The notes below the pieces were generated by a model, which was given only the letters and a program-made list of their open reading frames with translations, made no database searches and had not been told where the DNA came from. Source: an uncultured Bacilli bacterium (GTDB taxonomy: Bacteria > Bacillota_I > Bacilli_A > RF39 > UBA660). Taken from it: DNA of 64,000 bases. Location: the NCBI GenBank assembly GCA_947626595.1, contig CANQST010000002.1, positions 9,885-73,884 of the forward strand, in the 5' to 3' direction. Below are positions 4,717 through 52,017 of this stretch, piece by piece (the stretch's first letter is position 1; each line of letters begins with the position of its first letter). Made by a program: the position numbers and the translations under genes.

Positions 4717-6723
4717 ATGATTAATAAGTTTAACAAGTGTATTCCAATTATAATTGTTTTTATAATTACTATTATGACTATAGGTTATTCTGTTTTAAAT
4801 AAGGAATTAAATATAAGTGGTGAAGTTAATTATAGACCACAAGGTGATATGAGAATTACTAATGTCAAGCAAGAAGATATTAATAATGCAACTATAGAGT
4901 ATTTTGATTTTTCTAGGAAAGAAATTAAATTAGCTTATAGTAGTAGTGGGAGTGCTTTTCTAAAGTTTACAGTAGAAGTAACTAATTATAGTAATACTGA
5001 AATGGGTATTTTAAACATTGATGGATTAGATGGAGGTATAGTAGAAGGTTATACTTTAGGAACGAAACTAGTAGGAGAAGATAATAATAGTAAAGCTGGT
5101 ATGACGAAAGAGTTTACCATTACTTATAATTCAAGTGAAGTTGAAACAAAAAGTTTATTATTAAAGTTTGACTTTGAAGAAGTTTTTACTATTACATATA
5201 AAAATATAGTAGGTAATTATCAAAAAGAAATATTAAATAGTGATAATTTAAATATAACACTATTAAATCCGCCTAAAGATTTAGTAATAACTATGAATGG
5301 TGTTAATATTGATACTTATATTTATGATTATGTAACTGGCAAATTATCAATAAATAATGTAACTGGTAATTTAGTTATAGAACCATCTATACCAAATGAA
5401 CCAGTATTAAGTGATGGAATGATACCAGTATATTATGACGAAAATAATAAAGTATGGAAGAAAGCAGATGCGAAAAATGAAAATAATAACTGGTATAACT
5501 ATGATAATCAAATGTGGGCTAATGCTGTTACAGTAACTGCTACTAATAGATCAACTTATGTAAATGGCAATGTAGGAATTACAATACCAATGGAAGATAT
5601 AAATACAATGTGGGTATGGATACCAAGATATAGTTATACTATTAAAAGTGAAGATGGTAAAGATTATTTTGGAAAAAAAGAAACGGGTAGAATTGATATG
5701 CCAACTAAACAATTGCCAGGAGAAATAGATGTTAAATTTATTAGAGTAAATGATAAAGATACGGGAAATGCTCAGTATACAGGAGATATAGTAAATGAGT
5801 ATTTTACACCACCAGGCTTTACATTTGGGACAAAAGAGTTAAGTGGAGTATGGTTTGGTAAATTTGAAGCAGGGAGTATTAATGGGACAATTCCTGGAGA
5901 TGTAGAAACTGATAACTTGTTGGCAATTAGACCAGATATAAAATGTTGGAGAGGTATAAGAGTATCAACACTTGAATTAATCTCAACTGGAATTACTAAG
6001 CCATCGAATATTTATGGCTTTGGTAATAATATTTTTGATGCACATGCCACTAAAGATAGTGAATATGCTTTAGCAAGCTATATTACTCAAAGTAAATATG
6101 GAAAGTATGGTAATTCCCTATATACTGGAGAAAATAAAGAAGTTTATATCAATAGTTATAATGGCTATGTAACTGGTTGCTCAAGTGGTACTCCATTTGC
6201 CCCAACGAGTACTACCTGTAATTATAAGTATAATGATTTAACAAATAAGGGTCCTGGTACAGGATATGCTGGAGCAGGTGCTTCTACAACTGGTAATGTG
6301 TATGGTATATATGATATTAATGGAGGAGCATTTGAATATGCAATGGGAGTTCTTACTTTAAATGGTATAAGATATTCTGGTAATAGTTTGAGTTATAATT
6401 CGGGCTATACAGGGCAGACAATGTTAGATAATAGTATTTTTAACGGTAGAAATTGGCTTGATGACAAGTACTATGATTTTTATATTTCAAGTGACCCTAT
6501 GACTGCCTGTGGTGGAAAACCTTGCAAAGGCTATTCTATGGGAGAAACTGCAGCTTGGTATGATGACCACACTGGATTACCAAGAGACACTTATAGTACT
6601 TGGAGTTTAAGGTCATGTTATTTTGCTAGAGAGAAAAATGGTGGTATTTTTTCCTATGACGAAAATGGTGGTGCAGCTGGAGAATATCTTACAACTTTTA
6701 GAGTTATTTTAACCCCACAATAA
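4717..6723 (+). CDS. secreted/surface paralog-family protein: signal peptide, beta-rich N-domain, C-terminal FGE-sulfatase / C-type-lectin-fold-like domain (N-type III, C-type A)
   Basis: N-terminal K-rich region, then a hydrophobic stretch, then GYSVL. TMWVWIPRYSYTIK resembles the FGE 'MVxIPxGxFxMG' start. The C-terminus ends ...FRVILTPQ, matching the FGE-like terminal GFR motif. Shares the conserved HAxKxxEYALASYITQSKYGKYGN and GAGASTTGNVYGIYD blocks with the six other paralogs. RBS AGGTGA precedes ATG 4717. Confidence 0.8.
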   Translation: MINKFNKCIPIIIVFIITIMTIGYSVLNKELNISGEVNYRPQGDMRITNVKQEDINNATIEYFDFSRKEIKLAYSSSGSAFLKFTVEVTNYSNTEMGILNIDGLDGGIVEGYTLGTKLVGEDNNSKAGMTKEFTITYNSSEVETKSLLLKFDFEEVFTITYKNIVGNYQKEILNSDNLNITLLNPPKDLVITMNGVNIDTYIYDYVTGKLSINNVTGNLVIEPSIPNEPVLSDGMIPVYYDENNKVWKKADAKNENNNWYNYDNQMWANAVTVTATNRSTYVNGNVGITIPMEDINTMWVWIPRYSYTIKSEDGKDYFGKKETGRIDMPTKQLPGEIDVKFIRVNDKDTGNAQYTGDIVNEYFTPPGFTFGTKELSGVWFGKFEAGSINGTIPGDVETDNLLAIRPDIKCWRGIRVSTLELISTGITKPSNIYGFGNNIFDAHATKDSEYALASYITQSKYGKYGNSLYTGENKEVYINSYNGYVTGCSSGTPFAPTSTTCNYKYNDLTNKGPGTGYAGAGASTTGNVYGIYDINGGAFEYAMGVLTLNGIRYSGNSLSYNSGYTGQTMLDNSIFNGRNWLDDKYYDFYISSDPMTACGGKPCKGYSMGETAAWYDDHTGLPRDTYSTWSLRSCYFAREKNGGIFSYDENGGAAGEYLTTFRVILTPQ

Positions 6724-6895
6724 AAAATAAATGAAAACTCTAATTTTTCGCAAATAATAAATATGAGGAACTAATTTTATGTAAAATTGATGTAAATGGT
6801 TGAGAAGATATTTATTATAATTTGCATAAATTGTTAAGAATATGTTATTATTAGTAAGTAGTGAGACATAAAATATTTACGTGAGGAAGATTTTT

Positions 6896-7393
6896 ATGAA
6901 ATATGATAATGAAGAGTTTTTTGATATTATAAAGCCTATCATTGGAAATAGCGAATTTCAAAAATTAAAGAATATAAAACATCATGGTATAACAAGATAT
7001 GATCATTGTTTGAGAGTTGCTTATTTTTCTTATAAGGTTACTAAGGCTTTAAAGTTAGATTATATAGAAGTAACTGAGGCTGCTTTATTACATGACTTTT
7101 TCTTTGATGAAGCAGATAGTGAAGATAGTTTAAAGATTTTAAAGAACCATCCAAATATTGCGGTAGAAAATGCTAAGAAGTATTTCTTCTTAACTGATAA
7201 GCAACAAGATATAATAGAAAAGCATATGTTTCCAATTGGCTTAAAACCACCACTTTATTTGGAAAGTTGGGTTGTTGATATAGTAGACGATGTTGCGGCT
7301 ATTTATGAGAAGACTAAATCAACAAAAAAAGAAATACAGGCTGCGATTACATTTTTAATGCTTATTGTTATTAATTTTATCAAGTATCGTTAA
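6896..7393 (+). CDS. HD-domain phosphohydrolase-like protein
   Basis: HHGITRYDHCLRVA....LLHDFF is an H...HD...D metal-binding pattern. RBS GAGGAAG precedes ATG 6896. Confidence 0.55.
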   Translation: MKYDNEEFFDIIKPIIGNSEFQKLKNIKHHGITRYDHCLRVAYFSYKVTKALKLDYIEVTEAALLHDFFFDEADSEDSLKILKNHPNIAVENAKKYFFLTDKQQDIIEKHMFPIGLKPPLYLESWVVDIVDDVAAIYEKTKSTKKEIQAAITFLMLIVINFIKYR

Positions 7394-7401
7394 AAACAAA
7401 A

Positions 7402-7431
7402 AATGTTGTAATATTTCATTACAACATTTTT
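7402..7431. terminator. bidirectional terminator
   Basis: ATGTTGTAAT-atttc-ATTACAACAT hairpin followed by TTTT. Confidence 0.55.
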
Positions 7432-8701
7432 ATACTTTTAGAGAACCTATTGGTACAACGTATATTCCATCTTCTCTTTGATATGCATATTCGCCTTTTG
7501 CTGTTAGTATCATTAGAAAAGTTGGATTATTCATTTTTTTAGTATCTATTTTGTCTTTTAATTTTAATAAGTTTTCAGCAGCTTCATTTATTAATTTATC
7601 GCCACCTAGTTTAATTTCAATTAAACCATATTTTCCATCTCTTAAGTGAATAACGGCATCACATTCTAAATCCAAAGCATCTTTGTAGTGATAGACATTA
7701 CCATTTATGGCTTCAGCATAAACTCTTAAATCTCTTATACATAGTGTTTCAAAGATTAGACCAAAAGTGTTTAAATCATTTATTAAATCGTTAGGTCCAA
7801 TTCCTAGTGTTGCCGTTGCGATGGATGGATCAACGAAGTATCTTGTTTCTGATGTTCTTATTGCGGTTTTACTTCTTAGGTTAGGGTTCCAAGCTGGGGC
7901 ATCTTCAATGACAAATAATTTTTTAAGGGCATTTATGTAGGACAATACTGTATCAGCATCTAAAGAAAATAAGTCGTTATTTATCATATCTTTTCTTATT
8001 GTTTCAGTAGAGGCTTGAGTTCCGGTATTTCTGGCATAACTTTTCATTAAATTTTTAACTCGTTCAGGGTTTCTTGTTGTATTATCTACATTTGATGCAT
8101 CTGATTTTATAATACCATAACAATAATCGAATGGTTCTTCTAAAGCAATATCTTTTTCTAGAAAAATACTTCTTGGCCAACCACCTCTACAACAAAGATA
8201 TGCAATATCTTCTAGTGATAGGTTGCTGGTACCTTTTATTTTTGCTTTGTTTTCAAATAAATCAGTAAGACTTACTGTACCAGTTGACTCACCAGACTCA
8301 TATAAACTCATTGGTCTCATAGTTAACCAAGCAAAACGGCCAGTTCCGGTATGTGTCACTTCGTCCATATTGCCTGGAACTGAAGAACCTGTTAATATGA
8401 ATTGCCCTTCTTTTCCACGGTGGTCTACTTCAAATCTTACGGCATCCCATAATTTGGTTGCGATTTGCCACTCGTCAATAAGTCTTGGTGTTTCTCCCTC
8501 TAATAAAATAGAAGGATTTAAATCAGCTAGTATCAGGTTTTGCTCTTTATCTTCAGGCTTACTCATATAAAGAATACTTTTAGAAATTTGTTCAGCTGTT
8601 GTTGTTTTGCCACACCATTTTGGTCCTTGGATTAAAACAGCTCCTTTTCCTTTTAATTTTTTTTCTAATAAACTATCGATAATTCTCTTTCTATATTCCA
8701 T
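7430..8701 (-). CDS. AAA+ ATPase, DUF4143-type (ATP-binding protein)
   Basis: Walker A GPKWCGKTT. PMSLYESGESTG and FVDPSIA are motifs shared with the paralog at 37200. RBS AAGGAGG precedes ATG (complement of 8699-8701). The track ORF begins 51 nt further upstream. Confidence 0.7.
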   Translation of the reverse strand: MEYRKRIIDSLLEKKLKGKGAVLIQGPKWCGKTTTAEQISKSILYMSKPEDKEQNLILADLNPSILLEGETPRLIDEWQIATKLWDAVRFEVDHRGKEGQFILTGSSVPGNMDEVTHTGTGRFAWLTMRPMSLYESGESTGTVSLTDLFENKAKIKGTSNLSLEDIAYLCCRGGWPRSIFLEKDIALEEPFDYCYGIIKSDASNVDNTTRNPERVKNLMKSYARNTGTQASTETIRKDMINNDLFSLDADTVLSYINALKKLFVIEDAPAWNPNLRSKTAIRTSETRYFVDPSIATATLGIGPNDLINDLNTFGLIFETLCIRDLRVYAEAINGNVYHYKDALDLECDAVIHLRDGKYGLIEIKLGGDKLINEAAENLLKLKDKIDTKKMNNPTFLMILTAKGEYAYQREDGIYVVPIGSLKV

Positions 8702-16382: not shown

Positions 16383-18115
16383 ATGCTTTTCCTTTTTTTA
16401 TAATCTCTGTAGAATTCTCTGCAGGAATGTAGGTGATTGATGTATCTTTATTTTCAGCAACAGATACCATTTTCCCCAAGTGGGGAAAATGGTCTAATAC
16501 GTTGATATTACTACAAATGACAAGAATGCTTTTGACTTTATATCTTTATAAATTAAGGATTTTATTTAAAAATTTTTTAGTTGTTTTATAGATTTGTTTT
16601 ATGATCTCTGCAGAGATATTGTAGAGTTTTGTGCAGTATTTATGAGCATTTGATACAGCCTATCAAATACCATTTTCCCCACTTGGGGAAAATGGTCTAA
16701 TACGTTGGTATTATTACAAATGATAAGAGTGTTTTTGACTTTATGACTTTATAAATTAAGGATTTTATTTAGAAATTTTTTAGTTGTTTTATCAATCTGT
16801 TTTATAATCTCTGCAGAGATGCTGCAGAGTTTTGTGCAGGAATGTAAGCAGTTGATGTATCTTTATTTTCAGCACCAAATACCATTTTTCCGACGTCGGA
16901 AAAATGGTCTAATACGTTGATATTACTACAAATAATAAGAATGCTTTTAACTTTATATCTTTATAAATTAAGAACTATATTTAAGTCCTTTTACTGATTT
17001 AATTTATAGTCTCTGCAGAATTTTCTACAGAAAAATGGAAAACTCTGCAGAGATATTGTAGAGTTTTGAACAGTATTTATGAGCATTTGATGCAGCCTAT
17101 CAAATACCATTTTTCCCAAGTGGGAAAAATGGTCTAATACGTTGATATTACTACAAATTCAGAAATATTCTTGACTTTATATTTTTATGAATTATAAAGC
17201 CTTATTTAAGTTCTTTTATCAATTTGATTTATAGTCTCTACAGAATTCTCTGCAGAGATGCTGCAGAATTTTGTGCAGGAATGTAGGTATTTGATGTATT
17301 TTTATTTTTAGCAACAGATACCATTTTGCCGACGTCGGAAAAATGGTCTAATGCGTTGATATTACTACAAATTCAGAAATATTCTTGATTTTATATTTTT
17401 ATAAATTATAAAGCCTTATTTAAGTTTTTTTATCAATTTTATTTATAATTTCTGCAGAATTCTCTGCAAAGATGCTGCAGAATTTTGTGCAGGAATGTAG
17501 GTATTTGATGTATCTTTATTTTTAGAAGCAAATACCATTTTCCCCACTTGGGGAAAATGGTCTAATATGTTGATATTACTAAAAATAATAAGAATGCTTT
17601 TTACTTTATATCTTTATGAATTAAGAACCATATTTAAGGTCTTTTACTACTTTAATTTATAGTTTCTGCAGAAGAACTGTTAAACTCTGTAGAGATACTG
17701 CAAAGTTTTGTGCGGTAATATAAGTATTTGATGTATCTTTATTTTTAGAAGTAAATACCATTTTTCCGACGTCGGAAAAATGGTCTAATACATTGATATT
17801 ACTACAAATAATAAGAATGCTTTTGACTTTATATCTTTATAAATTAAGGATTTTTATTTATAAATTTTTTAATTGTTTTATAGAGTTGTTTTATGATTTT
17901 TGCATAATTCTCTGCAAAAAATGGAAAACTCTGCAGAGATACTGCAGAGCTTTGTGCAGTAATGTAGGTATTTGATGTATCTTTATTTTAGAAATAAATA
18001 CCATTTTTCCGACGTCGGCAAAATGGTCTAATACGTTGATATTACTATAAATTCAAGAATATTATTTGGTTTATACTTTTATAAATTATGAAAATTTCTT
18101 TAAGACTTTTTTAGT
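16383..18115. repeat. tandem array of 8 repeat units of roughly 203-233 bp, each containing a 26-bp perfect palindrome
   Basis: Palindromes start at 16466, 16669, 16881, 17106, 17320, 17534, 17767 and 18000. Every unit also contains TCTAATACGTTGATATTACTACAAAT, TTGACTTTATATCTTTATAAATTA-like and CTCTGCAGAG....CTGCAGAG segments. Confidence 0.9.
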
Positions 18116-18943
18116 TTAATTTTTAATCATAACATTTTTTTCTTTTTCTAATTCTTTAAGACTTTTTTTAGGTGTAGGTAAATTTTCAGGCATTGTTCCA
18201 CCATTTTTATTAATAACTTCTCTAATGTTTTTTCCGATATTGTAATGTGCCGCATTTGCTTTACTTTCTGTTTTAATATTTTCTCTTTTTAATTTTGACT
18301 CTGTTTGTGTAATTCGAAATAAATTTGCAGCTAGTTCTTCACTACCCATATTATCTAAAATATCTTCTCTATATCTTAGTTCTTTTCTTTTAGCAATATC
18401 GTCTGCTGTTTCGCCATTATATAAACCTTTATAACCGAAATTATGAAATTTATCAAAATTTTTAACACCTGAGTTTTTTGCTGTTTGATTTAATGAATAA
18501 TTACCTTTTTTAGTTAATTTTCTTTGATAAAGTCTCTTTTCATCTTCAGAAAGTTCACTATATTCTTTTTCGATTATTTCTTGTTTCCTAGTTTGTACTG
18601 CAAAATATGTTTGAGCTAAAGCAATGACTTGTTTTCTATTATCTCCATTTTGAGCAATTAAATAGCAAGCATATCTTGATAATTTGTAATCTTTTTGTTT
18701 TCTTTTGGAATTTGAACCTATAGATACTATTTTGTCAACGTCGATAAAATGGTCATCAATGTTATTATTGCTTAAATTACAAGTGTTTTTTGCTTTATCG
18801 ATAACACCTATAAAGTTTTTCCATTTTGAGTACTCAAGCGCTATCATTAACTCACGTGCAAGCCAGTATTCTTGATTATATTCATCAAGATGTTTGATAT
18901 TTTCAAAATTTGTTTTGCTGTATTCTTTTAGCGTATCTTCCAT
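18116..18943 (-). CDS. dinD: DNA-damage-inducible protein D homolog
   Basis: Strong recollected similarity to E. coli DinD along the whole length: EYWLAREL, LSRYACYLIAQNGD, QTYFAVQTRKQE, DEKRLYQRKL, HNFGYKGLYNGE, MGSEELAANLFRITQTESKLKRE, GGTMPENLPTP. RBS AAGGAG precedes ATG (complement of 18941-43), giving 275 aa against 274 aa for E. coli DinD. Confidence 0.85.
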   Translation of the reverse strand: MEDTLKEYSKTNFENIKHLDEYNQEYWLARELMIALEYSKWKNFIGVIDKAKNTCNLSNNNIDDHFIDVDKIVSIGSNSKRKQKDYKLSRYACYLIAQNGDNRKQVIALAQTYFAVQTRKQEIIEKEYSELSEDEKRLYQRKLTKKGNYSLNQTAKNSGVKNFDKFHNFGYKGLYNGETADDIAKRKELRYREDILDNMGSEELAANLFRITQTESKLKRENIKTESKANAAHYNIGKNIREVINKNGGTMPENLPTPKKSLKELEKEKNVMIKN

Positions 18944-19420
18944 TTTTACATCTCCTTTTTTTGTTTTTTTCTTTCTTATTAATATTGTACCAAATAATTC
19001 TTGATTATGCAAATGACTTTAGTTACTCATTTGTTCCTGTTGCTTTTTCTTTATTTATTACATTATTTTGTAATTTATGTAGAATTATCTATAGAAAAAC
19101 TGAAAAAAACTCTGCAGAGATACTGTAGAGTTTTGTGCAATAATATAAGTATTTGATGTATCTTTATTTTTAAAAGCAAATACCATTTTTCCGACGTCGG
19201 AAAAATGGTCCAATGCATTGATATTACTACAAATAGTAAGAATGCTTTTGACTTTATATCTTTATAAGTTTATAGTCTCTGAAGAAAAACTGTTAAACTT
19301 TGCAGAGATACTGCAAAGTTCTGTGCAGGAATGTAAGTACTTGATGTAGCCTATCAAATACCATTTTTCCCACTTGGGAAAAATGGTCTAATACGTTGAT
19401 ATTATTAGATATAATTAATT
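18944..19420. repeat. continuation of the tandem array (2 more units) on the far side of dinD
   Basis: Palindromes at 19182 and 19370. 19060-19180 aligns with the CTCTGCAGAG....TTTGATGTATCTTTATTTT part of the unit. Confidence 0.85.
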
Positions 19421-19582
19421 ATTGAAACTTGTTATTTCTGTTAGAGTGCTATAGCTAATTAACTGTAAAACATTATGTAAAATAAATTTAGCTTTATTGA
19501 AAAATAATGAAAATTTTGTTATATTCTAGATAGAAGAAAAACTACACATGGTTGTAGTTTTTCAAGTGTCTTGGAGGAGTAT

Positions 19583-43050: not shown

Positions 43051-43091
43051 GTGTAAATTGACAGGTTGTTTAGATTGTTGATATGAAAGAG

Positions 43092-43130
43092 AAAAAGAAA
43101 TGTTGATAAAAAAATATTTCTTTTCTTTTT
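43092..43130 (+). terminator. intrinsic terminator after parC
   Basis: AAAGAAAT-N14-ATTTCTTT hairpin followed by a T-run. Confidence 0.55.
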
Positions 43131-43150
43131 GCAATTTTCTTGACACCGTA

Positions 43151-43161
43151 GGGGGGGGGGG
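43151..43161. repeat. G11 homopolymeric tract in the promoter region of the paralog at 43274
   Basis: TTGACACCGTAGGGGGGGGGGGTAGTAAGATATTATTATAAAT. Eleven consecutive G in a ~28% GC genome. Confidence 0.9.
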
Positions 43162-43273
43162 TAGTAAGATATTATTATAAATAATTTTATTGTGGAAAAG
43201 TACTAGCCTGTTGCTGGTTTTATTTACAATTTCGGTAGCAACAAAATGGTACTGATTTAGGAATGGTGAGATA

Positions 43274-45238
43274 ATGGACGGTCGAAAACAAAAATTAATA
43301 ATTATAGGTGCTTTATGTTTAGTCGTAGTTTGTTTATCAATTGGATATGCAACTTTATCTTCAATGTTAAAGATAGATGGAACAGCTAATGTAGGAGGAG
43401 AGAAATGGAGTGTTGAGTTTGTAGAAAAACAAGTTAAAACTATTCCAAAAGGTAAAGCAACTTGTGAAATAGGAGATATCACTGGTACAGGTATTACTAA
43501 TATGTCTGCAGTATTTCAATTACCAGGTGACTCTTGTACATTTACAATACCAGTAGAAAATACAGGAACATTAGATGCTAGTCTAGTTGATGTAGAAGGA
43601 AAAGCTACACCTTTAAATTTAGTTGGAAGTCAAGAAGATATATCTAAATTAAATAATCAAATAACATATGATGTATCATATGGAGATACTAAAATAGATA
43701 ACCTAACTAGTTTCGATAATATTGACACTCTAGAACCAGGGGAAAGAGAAACAATAACATTAAAAGTAGAATTTAAATTAGAAGCAACTCAGATACCAAG
43801 TGAAGCAGTAACAATAACAGGATTAGATAGAACATTTAACTTCCAAAATAAAGTTGGTTCAAGTAGTGTTAGTCCAACACCTGATACAACTCCAGTGTTC
43901 AATGATACAAGTGGAGCGAATGCTCCAGTATTAAGTGGAGATATGATACCTGTTGTGTATGACGAAACAAAAAAGCAATGGGTAAAACAAGACTTAAATA
44001 AAAGTTATGATTATTCTCAACAAGTATGGGCAAATGCAGTAACTGTAGTTGAAGATGGAATTCAAACAAGAAGTTATTATAAAAAGGCTAAGGCGGGAAC
44101 AGTAATATCAATGAGTGATATAAACACAATGTGGGTATGGATACCAAGGTATAGTTATACTATCCAAGGTACATATGGAAAAGATGGAACAGGTGCTGCT
44201 ACTCCTGGAGAAATAGAAGTTAAGTTTGTTGGAGCAGGTACAACTGATACAGGAAGTGCAACATATACTGAAGGAGAAGCAACAGGATGGAGAACTAGTG
44301 GAGCTTTCAATTTTGGAGGAGAAGATAAAGCTGGTATATGGGTTTCAAAGTTTGAACCAACTGGTTCAGCTCCAGTTTGTACTACTGCAGATTGTGATAT
44401 AAGTAAAGTAACAGTAAAACCAGGTATTGCCTCAATTAGAAGTAAAACGGTAAGTGACTTCTTCTATATGGCAAGAAGTATGCAAAAAGTAAACAATCCA
44501 TATGGGTTCAATTCAATAAGTGCAGACTTGAATATGTTGAAGAATGATGAATGGGGAGCAGTGGCTTATCTATCACAAAGTAAATATGGAAAGTATGGAA
44601 ATAGTAATTATAGTGGGGCAAATAAAGAAGTTTACATGAATAATAATAGTAGTTATATAACTGGAACTAGTAGTGGCTTACCAAGTGCCAGTAGTTCTGC
44701 AGCTGTTGCCTATGCATATGATAATATGAAAGACTTAGGTGATGGAAAAGGATTAGCTGGACCAGGTGCTTCAACAACAGGAACGATATATGGAGCATAT
44801 GACATGAATGGTGGAGCGTGGGAATATGTAATGGGTGTGCTTGAGTATGATAGTCAAACAGAAAGTGCATACCCAGGAAGATTAACTACGTTTTCTTCTG
44901 GATTTAAAGGATTAAGCAATACTGGTGTAGAAATAGGAACAATTGATTTACCTGATTATAAGTATTATAATACTTATAAAAGTGCTAATCCGACATCAAG
45001 TACATGGTCTTCAGCATTAGCAGAAAAGGCATGTGATGGTGAAATATGTTATGGGCATGCTTTATCAGAAACAGCTGGTTGGTACGGGGATTACGCGAAC
45101 TTTGTGCCACGTTCTTCTCCTTGGGTTCTTCGCGGTGGCTACTATACTGATGGCTTGGGTGCTGGAGTGTTCGACGTAGGTAGTGCCTATGGCGGATCAC
45201 ACAACTATGTATCTTGCCGTCTCACTTTAGTCCCATAA
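43274..45238 (+). CDS. surface paralog-family protein (N-type II, C-type B)
   Basis: The N-terminal ~290 aa are ~90% identical to the 50056 paralog. The C-domain is of type B and ends ...CRLTLVP. The last ~170 bp are markedly GC-rich. Confidence 0.8.
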   Translation: MDGRKQKLIIIGALCLVVVCLSIGYATLSSMLKIDGTANVGGEKWSVEFVEKQVKTIPKGKATCEIGDITGTGITNMSAVFQLPGDSCTFTIPVENTGTLDASLVDVEGKATPLNLVGSQEDISKLNNQITYDVSYGDTKIDNLTSFDNIDTLEPGERETITLKVEFKLEATQIPSEAVTITGLDRTFNFQNKVGSSSVSPTPDTTPVFNDTSGANAPVLSGDMIPVVYDETKKQWVKQDLNKSYDYSQQVWANAVTVVEDGIQTRSYYKKAKAGTVISMSDINTMWVWIPRYSYTIQGTYGKDGTGAATPGEIEVKFVGAGTTDTGSATYTEGEATGWRTSGAFNFGGEDKAGIWVSKFEPTGSAPVCTTADCDISKVTVKPGIASIRSKTVSDFFYMARSMQKVNNPYGFNSISADLNMLKNDEWGAVAYLSQSKYGKYGNSNYSGANKEVYMNNNSSYITGTSSGLPSASSSAAVAYAYDNMKDLGDGKGLAGPGASTTGTIYGAYDMNGGAWEYVMGVLEYDSQTESAYPGRLTTFSSGFKGLSNTGVEIGTIDLPDYKYYNTYKSANPTSSTWSSALAEKACDGEICYGHALSETAGWYGDYANFVPRSSPWVLRGGYYTDGLGAGVFDVGSAYGGSHNYVSCRLTLVP

Positions 45239-49550: not shown

Positions 49551-49799
49551 TTATTGTCGAATTTTTTCTTCTTCAGTAATTCCTTTTGGATATGGACTTT
49601 TACAATCAGTTCGCTCTAGTATGTAATCTACAGAAACATTATAGATATCAGCTATCTTATCTAGTAGATCTATTGGTATAGTTCTTTTACCGTTTTCATA
49701 TAATCCGTACACTTGTCTTCTTATATGTAATTCTTCAGCAATCTGCTTTTGTAATAAGTCATTATCTTCTCTTAAATTTCTTAATCTCTTTAGGTACAT
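49551..49799 (-). CDS. XRE-family HTH transcriptional regulator
   Basis: 82 aa. LLQKQIAEELHIRRQVYGLYENGKRTIPIDLL is a Cro/C1 HTH. Divergent from the paralog at 50056. Confidence 0.7.
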   Translation of the reverse strand: MYLKRLRNLREDNDLLQKQIAEELHIRRQVYGLYENGKRTIPIDLLDKIADIYNVSVDYILERTDCKSPYPKGITEEEKIRQ

Positions 49800-49827: not shown

Positions 49828-49900
49828 GCAATTAATAAATTGCATTGACAAGCAACCATTTGCTTGCTAAAATGTTTATCGAAGAAACTAAATGGTTGCA
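49828..49900 (+). promoter_or_regulatory. promoter plus nested inverted repeats in the XRE / paralog-50056 intergenic region
   Basis: TTGACA (49845-50), 17 bp, TAAAAT. Palindrome GCAATTAATAAATTGC (49828-43). CAAGCAA-acca-TTTGCTTG lies in the spacer. 10-bp inverted repeat GCAACCATTT (49852-61) / AAATGGTTGC (49890-99). Confidence 0.5.
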
Positions 49901-50055: not shown

Positions 50056-52017
50056 ATGGATAGTAGAAAGCAGAAACTAATTTTAATTGGTGTTTTATGT
50101 TTAGTTGTAGTTTGTTTATCAATTGGATATGCGATGCTATCTTCAATGTTAAGGATAGATGGAACAGCTAATGTTGGAGGAGAAAAGTGGAGTGTTGAGT
50201 TTGTAGAGAAACAGGCAAAGACTATTCCTAAGGGAAAGGCAACTTGTGAAATAGGAAATATCACTGGTACAAGTATTACTAATATGTCAGCAGTATTTCA
50301 ATTACCAGGAGACTCTTGTACATTTACTATACCAGTAGAAAATACTGGAACATTAGATGCCAGTTTAGTTGATGTAGATGGTAAAGCTACACCTTTAAAT
50401 TTAGTTGGTAGTCAAGAAGATATAGCTAAATTAAATAGCCAAATAACATATGATGTTCAATATGGAAATACAAAAATAGATAACTTAACTACTTTTGATA
50501 ATATTGATACTTTAGAACCAGGTGAAAGGGAGACTATAACTTTAAAAGTAGAGTTTAGGGAAGAAGCAACACAAATACCAGCAGCCGCTGTTACAATAGA
50601 AGGATTAGATAGAACATTTAACTTTCAAAATAAAACTAATTCAAGTAGTACTAATCCATCTCCAACTACAACACCAGTTTACCACGATAATAGTGGTGCA
50701 AACAAGCCAATTTTGAGTGAAAATATGATACCTGTAGTTTATGACGAGACAAAAAGAGAGTGGGTAAAGCAAGATTTAGATAAAAGTTATGATTATTCAC
50801 AACAAGTATGGGCAAATGCAGTAACTGTAGTTGAAGAGTATCAAAATAAGACTAGAAATTATTATAAACTAGCAAAACCAGGTACAGTAATACCGATGGA
50901 TGCTATAAACACAATGTGGGTATGGATACCAAGATATAGCTATACTATAAAGAGTGAAGATGGAAATAACTATTATGGCAAAGCAAGTTCTGATAATGAA
51001 AATCCAACCCAAGCTTTACCAGGAGAAATAGATGTTAAGTTTATACCAGTAAGTGAAAATGATACTGAAGGTAGTGCACAATATACAGGAGAAGAAGCAA
51101 GTGGATGGTTTACCCCACCAGGTTTTACTTTTGGAGATAAAGATTTATCAGGAGTTTGGATAGGAAAGTTTGAAACAGGTTCAATTGATGGAACAAGTCC
51201 AGGAGATGTAGAAACTGATAACTTAGTGGCAATAAAACCAAATATAACATCTTGGAGAAATATTAGAGTATCTACATTAGAACTTGTGTCTATGGGATTA
51301 ACTAAAGATGGAAATATTTATGGTTTTGATCAAAATACTTATGATGCACATGCTTCGAAAAATAGTGAATGGGCGTTAATGTCATATTTAACACAAAGTA
51401 AATATGGTAAATATGGCAATTCTTTATATACAGGTGAAAACAAACAAGTATATATGAATAACTATGGTGGATATATGACAGGATGTTCTTCAGGTAAGGC
51501 GACAGCAGGTAATGAAACAACTTGTGAAAATACTTATGATGTAATGGTAAATCGTCAAAATGGTCAAGGATATGCTGGAGCAGGTGCTTCAAGTACTGGA
51601 AATATTTATGGTATATATGATGCTTCAGGAGGAGCATGGGAATATACAATGGGTGTACTAAACAAGATGTCAGGAAATACACAAAGTTGGAATTCAGGTT
51701 ATCCTGGCTTACTTACTGATGGGACTAGTTTTACAGGAAATCGAGAATGGCCAGCTGATAAATATGTAGATGTTTATATGTCAGAAGATACCAAAATTGC
51801 CTGTAAAGGAACTTCATGTAATGGCCATGCTTTAAATGAAACATCAGGATATTATGGTGATTATTATGTTATGGTAGACACTGCAAAAATGTGGCTAGTT
51901 AGAGGAGGCGGTAGCCGTTATAGTAATTCTGGTGTAGGAATCTTCTCATTTGGAAATAATTATGGTAATGCGTATTCTGATAACTCATTTCGTATTGTTT
52001 TAGCACCAAATAATTAA
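50056..52017 (+). CDS. surface paralog-family protein (N-type II, C-type A)
   Basis: RBS AGGTGGAG. The N-terminal half matches 43274. The C-domain has the conserved type-A blocks and ends ...FRIVLAPNN. Confidence 0.8.
   Translation: MDSRKQKLILIGVLCLVVVCLSIGYAMLSSMLRIDGTANVGGEKWSVEFVEKQAKTIPKGKATCEIGNITGTSITNMSAVFQLPGDSCTFTIPVENTGTLDASLVDVDGKATPLNLVGSQEDIAKLNSQITYDVQYGNTKIDNLTTFDNIDTLEPGERETITLKVEFREEATQIPAAAVTIEGLDRTFNFQNKTNSSSTNPSPTTTPVYHDNSGANKPILSENMIPVVYDETKREWVKQDLDKSYDYSQQVWANAVTVVEEYQNKTRNYYKLAKPGTVIPMDAINTMWVWIPRYSYTIKSEDGNNYYGKASSDNENPTQALPGEIDVKFIPVSENDTEGSAQYTGEEASGWFTPPGFTFGDKDLSGVWIGKFETGSIDGTSPGDVETDNLVAIKPNITSWRNIRVSTLELVSMGLTKDGNIYGFDQNTYDAHASKNSEWALMSYLTQSKYGKYGNSLYTGENKQVYMNNYGGYMTGCSSGKATAGNETTCENTYDVMVNRQNGQGYAGAGASSTGNIYGIYDASGGAWEYTMGVLNKMSGNTQSWNSGYPGLLTDGTSFTGNREWPADKYVDVYMSEDTKIACKGTSCNGHALNETSGYYGDYYVMVDTAKMWLVRGGGSRYSNSGVGIFSFGNNYGNAYSDNSFRIVLAPNN

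Follow-up and report, generated by a model that had tools for sequence, protein, structure and literature searches.

A G11 run in the promoter spacer of a surface-protein gene: a candidate slipped-strand switch in a paralog family of uncultured gut Bacilli-like bacteria

An 11-G homopolymer lies upstream of a surface-protein gene in a 64,000-nucleotide stretch of DNA from an uncultured Bacilli bacterium (hereafter "the window," 28.9% GC), and we consider it moderately probable that this run is a slipped-strand promoter-spacer switch of the type described for the Treponema pallidum tpr/tp0126 and Neisseria meningitidis porA genes. Slipped-strand mispairing during replication adds units to long G runs and removes them, and simple-repeat contingency loci of this general kind are best known from Neisseria, Haemophilus, Campylobacter, Helicobacter, Treponema, and the mycoplasmas. 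In the mechanism that we propose, the G11 run would form the variable-length spacer of a sigma-70-type promoter (TTGACA-N5-G11-TAG-TAAGAT) driving a membrane-anchored protein whose C-terminal tip would adopt the variable-protein fold of a diversity-generating retroelement (DGR). Each slippage step would change the -35/-10 distance by 1 bp, such that, by analogy with the characterized systems, G11 (19-bp spacer) is predicted to be weak or OFF and G9–G10 (17–18 bp) to be ON; we infer the ON length, as we do the rate of switching and its occurrence on a physiological time-scale. With many paralogs carrying the same device, each cell would display a stochastic subset of surface proteins, and some of the expressed paralogs would additionally be diversified at the tip by a DGR.

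The run sits in the sequence TTGACACCGTA-G11-TAGTAAGATATTATTATAAAT (43140–43180 reading TTGACA-CCGTA-G11-TAGTAAGATATTATTATAAAT), 5 bp after the TTGACA hexamer at 43140–43145 and 112 nt before the ATG at 43274 (Table 1), in agreement with the original prediction of an 11-G tract about 110 bp upstream of this start. Counts of G runs in the window fall from 7417 of length 1 through 1737, 256, and 56 (lengths 2, 3, and 4) to eight of length 5, and beyond length 5 the 64 kb hold one G run, the 11-G one; C runs reach at most 5 and A/T runs at most 8. Dinucleotide-preserving shuffles give 0.06 expected G9 matches against the three overlapping ones observed, and simple base-frequency arithmetic puts the expected number of runs of ≥11 G in 64 kb at ~5e-4. 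Chance alone would hardly produce the run, which has no counterpart elsewhere in the window—both its improbability and its status as the only long homopolymer had been claimed at the outset, and both claims are borne out—and it is long enough to slip (i.e., about 8 or more G/C).

Table 1. Features of the run-bearing locus in the window, with the promoter geometry of related loci.
Feature	Locus	Position or length	Strand	Basis or remarks
Start of conserved paralog cassette (GTGTAAATTGACA), holding an upstream TTGACA (43058–43063)	Window	43051–43063	+	Invariant in three cassettes (window, L100, L082)
Terminator-like AT-rich imperfect inverted repeat, then T run	Window	43088–43130	+	Sequence inspection; position kept in L100 and L082
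-35 hexamer TTGACA	Window	43140–43145	+	Perfect consensus; invariant in three cassettes
G11 homopolymer, proposed slippage-prone spacer element	Window	43151–43161	+	Run counts; shuffles; paralogs G10/G11; wider family G9–G11
Best -10 candidate, TAAGAT	Window	43165–43170	+	19-bp spacer with G11; TAGTAA[GT]AT kept in three cassettes
Predicted 5' UTR, with Shine-Dalgarno-like GGAATGGTGAG at 43260–43270	Window	43178–43273	+	
654-aa surface-protein gene	Window	43274–45238	+	N-terminal membrane helix (residues 4–31), beta-sandwich region, predicted C-terminal C-type-lectin fold of DGR variable-protein type
3' tip rich in GC and poor in A, similar to a DGR variable region (VR)	Window	45070–45235	+	51–52% GC; AT skew -0.31
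-35-to-run distance	bin48	0 bp		
-35-to-run distance	bin56, bin119	1 bp		
-35-to-run distance	Window species	5 bp		
-35-to-run distance	L052	8 bp		
-35-to-run distance	bin30, L038	9 bp		
-35-to-run distance	BRZ	9 bp (L058/L061); 5 bp (L056)		After TTGCAA in L058/L061
Spacer to nearest -10-like hexamer	bin56, bin119	16 bp		
Spacer to nearest -10-like hexamer	bin30, window, L082, L038, L052	18–20 bp		
Spacer to nearest -10-like hexamer	bin48	20–21 bp		
Spacer to nearest -10-like hexamer	L056 (single outlier)	14 bp		
Spacer to nearest -10-like hexamer	L057 (single outlier)	15 bp		

Since the same G11 with the same flanks occurs in an independent assembly (contig L001; ERZ27249395), we take the run to be real and not the artefact of a single assembly. 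Over 8.6 kb, L001 and the window differ only at 44195 and 44197, both positions falling in a single codon (308) of the surface-protein gene. A further contig (L002; ERZ27249386) equals the window over 5.7 kb, and this 53-kb contig ends one base before the first G, a break that could be compatible with length heterogeneity and equally with problems in sequencing or trimming poly-G. An artefact of sequencing or assembly, such as the poly-G of two-colour chemistry, would find some support in that contig end and in a related contig (L026) that begins with G9, but two independent assemblies contain the run in a contig interior with the same flanks, and the same promoter position recurs in about 50 loci from many samples and assemblers. 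Given these comparative data we regard the artefact reading as refuted, with a probability that is practically negligible.

Within the promoter, TAAGAT starts 3 bp 3' of the G11 run in a layout that is kept in the paralogs, and it would serve as the -10 of the TTGACA promoter. The two -10 candidates named in the original prediction, TATTAT and TATAAA, are too distant from this -35 (spacers of 24 and 30 bp), leaving TAAGAT as the nearest acceptable hexamer at 19 bp; a generic promoter scanner made no call of the G-run promoter (spacer >18 bp). The inverted repeat further upstream is probably, from its sequence, the transcription terminator of parC, insulating the promoter downstream of it. Transcription could alternatively come from the TTGACA at 43058, in which case the run would act at the RNA level (i.e., through polymerase slippage, 5'-UTR structure, or a G-rich element). 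This second TTGACA, 82 bp further upstream, belongs to the conserved cassette sequence, but its -10 is poor, the terminator-like hairpin intervenes before the run, the 5' UTR folds no better than shuffled sequences and matches no Rfam family, and most family copies have the run about 50 nt ahead of the ATG, set right between a -35-like and a -10-like hexamer; we consider such an RNA-level role highly improbable. The 5' UTR does contain a weak hairpin at about 43199–43250, a segment that is missing from the L082 cassette, and a riboswitch or attenuator reading was dropped on the folding result (z = -0.8), the Rfam search of the window having returned tRNA only. Two further ideas were likewise set aside: an intramolecular G-quadruplex, as a matter of reasoning rather than computation, because the lone G11 lacks four separated G-tracts, and reiterative transcription from within the run, because the variants with 9 bp between -35 and run offer no usable -10 before it.

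The promoter belongs to an upstream cassette of ~230 nt that is common to three paralogs, namely the window gene, P0002 on contig L082, and P0006 on contig L100 (same sample as L001). In the three-cassette alignment the -35/run/-10 core is the best-conserved stretch, and the neighbourhoods of the cassettes are all different (one follows parC, one an arylsulfotransferase gene, and one rbfA plus a further gene). Run lengths differ among these three cassettes of one population: G11 in the window, G11 in L100 (TTGACACCGTA-G11-TAGTAAGATTATATTATAAGG), and G10 in L082, where TTGACACAGTA-G10-TAGTAATATATTATTATAAAT lies 5' of the P0002 gene.

The product is a plausible contingency-gene product, as judged from its modelled architecture, which combines a membrane helix with a DGR variable-protein fold. 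An AlphaFold model built with 55 homologues (pLDDT 81) comprises the N-terminal helix (residues 4–31), beta-sandwich domains, and a large C-terminal domain, and a Foldseek search of the PDB returned TaqVP as the best and sole significant match (E = 3.8e-8, probability 1.00). TaqVP is the variable protein of the Thermus aquaticus DGR (PMC5758913). At the sequence level, the 654-aa protein has 3207 unnamed database relatives at E ≤ 1e-5, and a PDB sequence search with it found no match; exact-protein look-ups gave no record for the window protein, P0001, or P0004, and for P0049 and P0050 only a MAG already in the data set. Seven paralogs lie in the window, the 43274 gene among them, and together with the helix and the fold they bear out the earlier assignment of this gene to a variable surface-protein family. 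One of the seven, the paralog at 50056, has a run-less promoter (TTGACA-N17-TAAAAT; 49845–49873) that overlaps the palindrome AAGCAACCATTTGCTT and adjoins a divergent HTH_3 gene (49551–49799), so that family members use several different regulatory set-ups. Two other run-less paralogs, on L099 (about 840–865) and L101 (about 4860–4875), carry a (TA)n run of about 10 vs. about 5 units in a short leader ORF ~150 nt 5' of the start, which may represent a second type of simple-repeat element in the same family.

Poly-G runs in this position extend well beyond the window's species. A one-genome-per-species scan yielded 79 loci from MAGs labelled uncultured Bacilli (one labelled Clostridia), most of them with rabbit-sample ("Lapin") isolate names. 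We took a census of runs of G≥8 across these loci plus the window and L082 (~600 kb, non-redundant) and found that 46 of 48 belong to a family gene, either 32–174 nt ahead of it or within its 5' end; all of these have G on the sense strand, family lengths are G9–G11, and no C run of ≥7 occurs in the ~600 kb of related loci. A TTGAC[ACGT] hexamer precedes the run in 41 of the 48 tracts. The suggestion that other family members be checked for similar tracts was thus fruitful: at least 45 family promoters carry one in related gut MAGs, and such runs occur in 10 MAG species in addition to that of the window (nine with a Bacilli label, one with a Clostridia label). The most heavily equipped genome, bin30 (GCA_947624045.1), holds at least 27 family genes with the layout CTTGACA-N9-Gn-TATG[AC]TATAGT, with G10 in 24 of 27, G9 in two (L047 and L049), and G11 in one (L040), alongside an about equal number of family genes with unrelated, run-less promoters. 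A 28th bin30 copy (L032, about 2942–2951) has an interrupted run, GGGGGTGGGG, in an otherwise typical layout with the total length of 10 kept; it would be a locked or decayed copy of unchanged total spacer length. The comparative data taken together make a functional, mutable element very likely.

Two MAG species extend the pattern into coding sequence of the same gene family. In L059 (2497–2505) an in-frame G9 occupies codons 9–12 (MKSLPRSNGGGHKR...), just before the membrane helix. In L068 (2437–2445) a G9 follows a well-placed Shine-Dalgarno sequence and ATG; the ATG frame is lost exactly at the run and stops five codons later, the 580-aa family ORF resumes in the +1 frame, and a G10 would restore the frame. 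Runs in promoter spacers and in 5' coding ends, one of them in an out-of-frame allele, have the look of a contingency-gene family at the sequence level, a pattern that a protein-binding site would hardly explain.

These observations bear on whether the run is instead a static cis-element, i.e., a fixed-length spacer or the site of a family-specific regulator, held at ~10–11 G by purifying selection and serving ordinary regulation. The narrow length distribution in bin30 (24 of 27 exactly G10, and a total of 10 even in the interrupted L032 copy) fits selection for a fixed length as well, and the strict sense-strand orientation of G in all copies would suit a protein-binding site. However, the context of the run is not conserved between lineages, the -35 standing at 0 to 9 bp from it, and the G9 runs inside ORFs (one of them frameshifted) occur without any promoter site. 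That the run persists while its distance from the -35 varies (N0, N1, N5, N8, and N9) implies that the run itself is kept and not a fixed surrounding site. Length also differs among copies with identical or near-identical cores, which include G9, G10, and G11 (e.g., L030 with G10 vs. L047 with G9, and L040 with G11 vs. G10 in five copies with the same N9), and G10–11 is intrinsically unstable, such that a mixed sequence would serve a fixed length better. The comparison of the same locus across samples adds weight to the static reading: consensus lengths were identical in three of three comparisons (window vs. L001, G11/G11; L047 vs. L083, G9/G9; L010 vs. L084, G10/G10). This null result genuinely argues against a fast-changing majority allele and is silent on minority alleles; a search of JGI metagenomes for further strains of the window locus, using exact flanks and a variable gap, gave 0 hits. 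On balance we judge a static element unlikely.

The spacer geometry raises a different possibility, in which the run is phase-variable but sets the distance or phasing of an upstream activator or UP-like element relative to the -10, in the style of Bordetella fim or N. meningitidis opc. Predicted spacers to the nearest -10-like hexamer span 14–21 bp, are mostly 18–20 bp, and at consensus lengths are 17 bp in none. In the bin30 class, moreover, a textbook extended -10 (TATG-n-TATAGT) lies 5 bp further on, with TTGACA then 24 bp off, which renders the -10 assignment ambiguous. An activator would accord with the nearest-hexamer spacers of 18–21 bp in most copies and never 17, with the bin30 extended -10 abutting the run (it would need no -35), and with the T-rich stretches that precede TTGACA in many copies. 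Yet most copies keep a perfect TTGACA just ahead of the run, the lineages share no conserved candidate activator site, and the window shows no regulator gene linked to this locus; we think activator phasing quite improbable. For the promoter-spacer switch that we favor, the avoidance of 17 bp fits a population consensus that sits one to three steps off the optimum, as well as a default-OFF repertoire in which few members are ON per cell; it also weighs against this switch, the ON state being represented by no promoter at its consensus length.

A layout control was drawn from a JGI metagenome scan with the pattern TTGACA-N9-G7-N0-7-TATGMTATA, the hits being chosen by that very pattern. It returned 12 hits from unrelated organisms of 24–62% GC; in most of them the free positions are also G, and several have downstream ORFs with signal-peptide-like or membrane-helix N-termini. 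One locus, from an unrelated human-gut organism of 54–59% GC, places TTGACACCC-Gn-TATGCTATAAT ahead of a membrane-anchored protein (L086, 81–114; L088, 940–972 on the minus strand; L092; L095). At this orthologous locus the run is G16 and G15 in L086 and L088, whose flanks are 100% identical, and G13 and G12 in two further samples with diverged flanks. Because of the G16/G15 pair with identical flanks, promoter runs of this layout do vary in nature, in another organism. L085 (G8, 35% GC) and L091 (G10, 24% GC) carry promoters paralogous to each other, in contigs of the same metagenome project. The switch as first put forward for the window gene keeps its promoter context and its variable surface paralog and gains family-wide conservation, but it loses the -10 hexamers then named and comes with no cross-sample change in length.

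The GC-rich tip connects the run-bearing genes to DGRs. The window gene was correctly singled out as the one paralog with such a tip among the window's seven (0.51 vs. 0.33–0.40 GC). Its closest paralog, P0002, is 76% identical at the protein level and lies on L082, which comes from the same sample as L002 at similar coverage, and we infer that L082 and the window belong to the same genome. Downstream of P0002 on L082 are a template repeat (TR), then a bAvd gene, then a reverse transcriptase (RT), and the VR (5856–5961) differs from the TR (6124–6229) at 16 positions, 16/16 of them at TR adenines. Such adenine-only VR/TR differences are the defining signature of a DGR, and on this sequence evidence P0002 is an active DGR target. 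The complete DGR occupies 5856–8359 of L082 (Avd 6606–7319, RT 7304–8359), and its Avd protein has an N-terminal MutS domain I fused to Avd; MutS-like DGR accessory genes are known, as separate genes (PMC5758913).

The window tip aligns with the VR framework of L082, and the P0006 tip on L100 (4830–5010; 56% GC) shares that framework too. Against the L082 TR, however, the window tip has 59 mismatches, of which 17 are at TR adenines, and the 3' end differs; the L082 TR was rejected as the template of either the window or the L100 tip, the mismatches not being adenine-only. The window contains no repeat of the GC-rich tip that could be a DGR template (paralog matches only), and Pfam searches of its ORFs of ≥120 aa and of four shorter ORFs found no RT or Avd. 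With no adenine-only match to the L082 TR and no TR or RT in the window, the window gene would be a former DGR target or one served by a DGR outside the sequences analysed here; for the window and L100 tips alike, either further templates may lie elsewhere in the genome or both are former targets.

In the window's population, a VR-like GC-rich tip is present in 3/3 run-bearing paralogs vs. 0/8 run-less paralogs (Fisher exact p about 0.006, our own calculation). Because the poly-G cassette is found only on paralogs with VR-like tips in this species, we put forward, with somewhat less than even confidence, a linked module of promoter switching and DGR that would give uncultured gut Bacilli-like MAGs (mostly rabbit) a two-tier surface variation, with dozens of poly-G-switched, membrane-anchored lectin-fold paralogs per genome and a subset hypermutated by DGRs at the ligand-binding tip. 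An independent poly-G promoter or 5'-ORF switch for each paralog would then generate combinatorial ON/OFF states. A full-text literature search found no paper linking DGRs with homopolymer phase variation.

The closest precedent is T. pallidum, in which poly-G runs of 7–11 lie in the promoters of several tpr paralogs (tprE/G/J/F/I/L) and of tp0126 (PMC7864442 and work cited there). The tp0126 run separates -35 from -10, with the highest activity at a 17-bp spacer; transcription of tprE, G, and J requires ≤8 G; in tprL constructs G8 is active and G10 near background; and run length varies within isolates, with most tprL promoters at a non-permissive G9 (PMC7864442). The likeness thus extends from poly-G in the promoters of several surface-family paralogs to the presence of a second, sequence-level variation system, and to a majority of cells with a non-permissive length, much as spacers sit off the optimum here. 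The differences are that T. pallidum is a spirochaete, whereas ours is an uncultured low-GC gut bacterium with peptidoglycan genes; that many more loci are involved here (at least 27 in one genome); and that the second tier is tprK gene conversion there and a DGR here, the present case being known from sequence alone.

In N. meningitidis, as far as the account in PMC7864442 goes, porA has poly-G between -35 and -10 and opc has poly-C at the -35, with porA acting through the -35/-10 spacing and its common length giving the optimal 17-bp spacer. Both resemble the present case in having a G/C homopolymer in the promoter core that is thought to set the level of transcription by -35/-10 spacing, but they are single genes for Gram-negative outer-membrane proteins, in contrast to the large paralog family here, and the common porA length is optimal where our consensus lengths are off-optimum. 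Among gut bacteria, Campylobacter jejuni and Bifidobacterium breve use G runs of 9–11 as slippage switches of surface structures; those of C. jejuni and of the B. breve pilus genes (PMC9187656) are intragenic poly-G contingency loci, the mode to which the runs of L059 and L068 correspond, whereas the window run lies in a promoter, where it would grade or switch transcription and leave the reading frame unaffected. The DGR variable proteins TvpA and TaqVP have a C-type-lectin/FGE-like fold (PMC5758913); the predicted fold of the C-terminal half of the window protein matches TaqVP and its closest paralog comes with VR/TR, Avd, and RT, the difference being that no cognate TR was found for the window gene.

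Each vlp promoter of Mycoplasma hyorhinis contains a poly-A run, and the Vlp products are lipoproteins with size-variable repeats. The system (listed in PMC11868660) offers a parallel in a low-GC, Bacilli-related lineage, with a multigene surface family, a separate promoter-spacer homopolymer for each gene, and combinatorial ON/OFF expression, although its genes encode lipoproteins under poly-A, vs. poly-G and DGR-type lectin-fold proteins here.

In gene content the window is ordinary chromosomal DNA of a low-GC Firmicute, with genes for DNA polymerase III delta, YebC, ComEA/ComEC, RecD2, YlbD/E/F-like proteins, RsmD, GltX, and the capsule. The B and A subunits of a type IIA topoisomerase (here called ParE/ParC) are encoded just ahead of the run; the organism makes peptidoglycan, as a Mur ligase and FemAB are encoded on related contigs. 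A separate feature of the window is an array at 16389–19423 of at least 10 copies of an 88–214-nt unit with the palindromic core CCATTTT(C/T)CC..GG(G/A)AAAATGG, which lacks ORFs longer than about 60 aa, matches nothing in Rfam, flanks a gene with a BRO-N domain (18116–19012, minus strand), and may be a non-coding RNA or terminator array or the remnant of a mobile element.

The mechanism proposed here is a known one; new are its occurrence in uncultured gut Bacilli-like MAGs, its scale, with at least 27 promoters in one genome, and the association with DGR-type variable proteins. There is also a practical warning for metagenomics, in that assemblies break at such runs or fix one length. The device appears to control a very large surface-protein family of uncultured gut commensals. 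If the switching is real, poly-G promoter runs would be a simple, searchable marker of contingency genes in metagenomes, and these bacteria would combine a stochastic choice of adhesin-like proteins with targeted hypermutation of their binding tips—a combination that would be relevant to phage, immune, and niche interactions in the gut.
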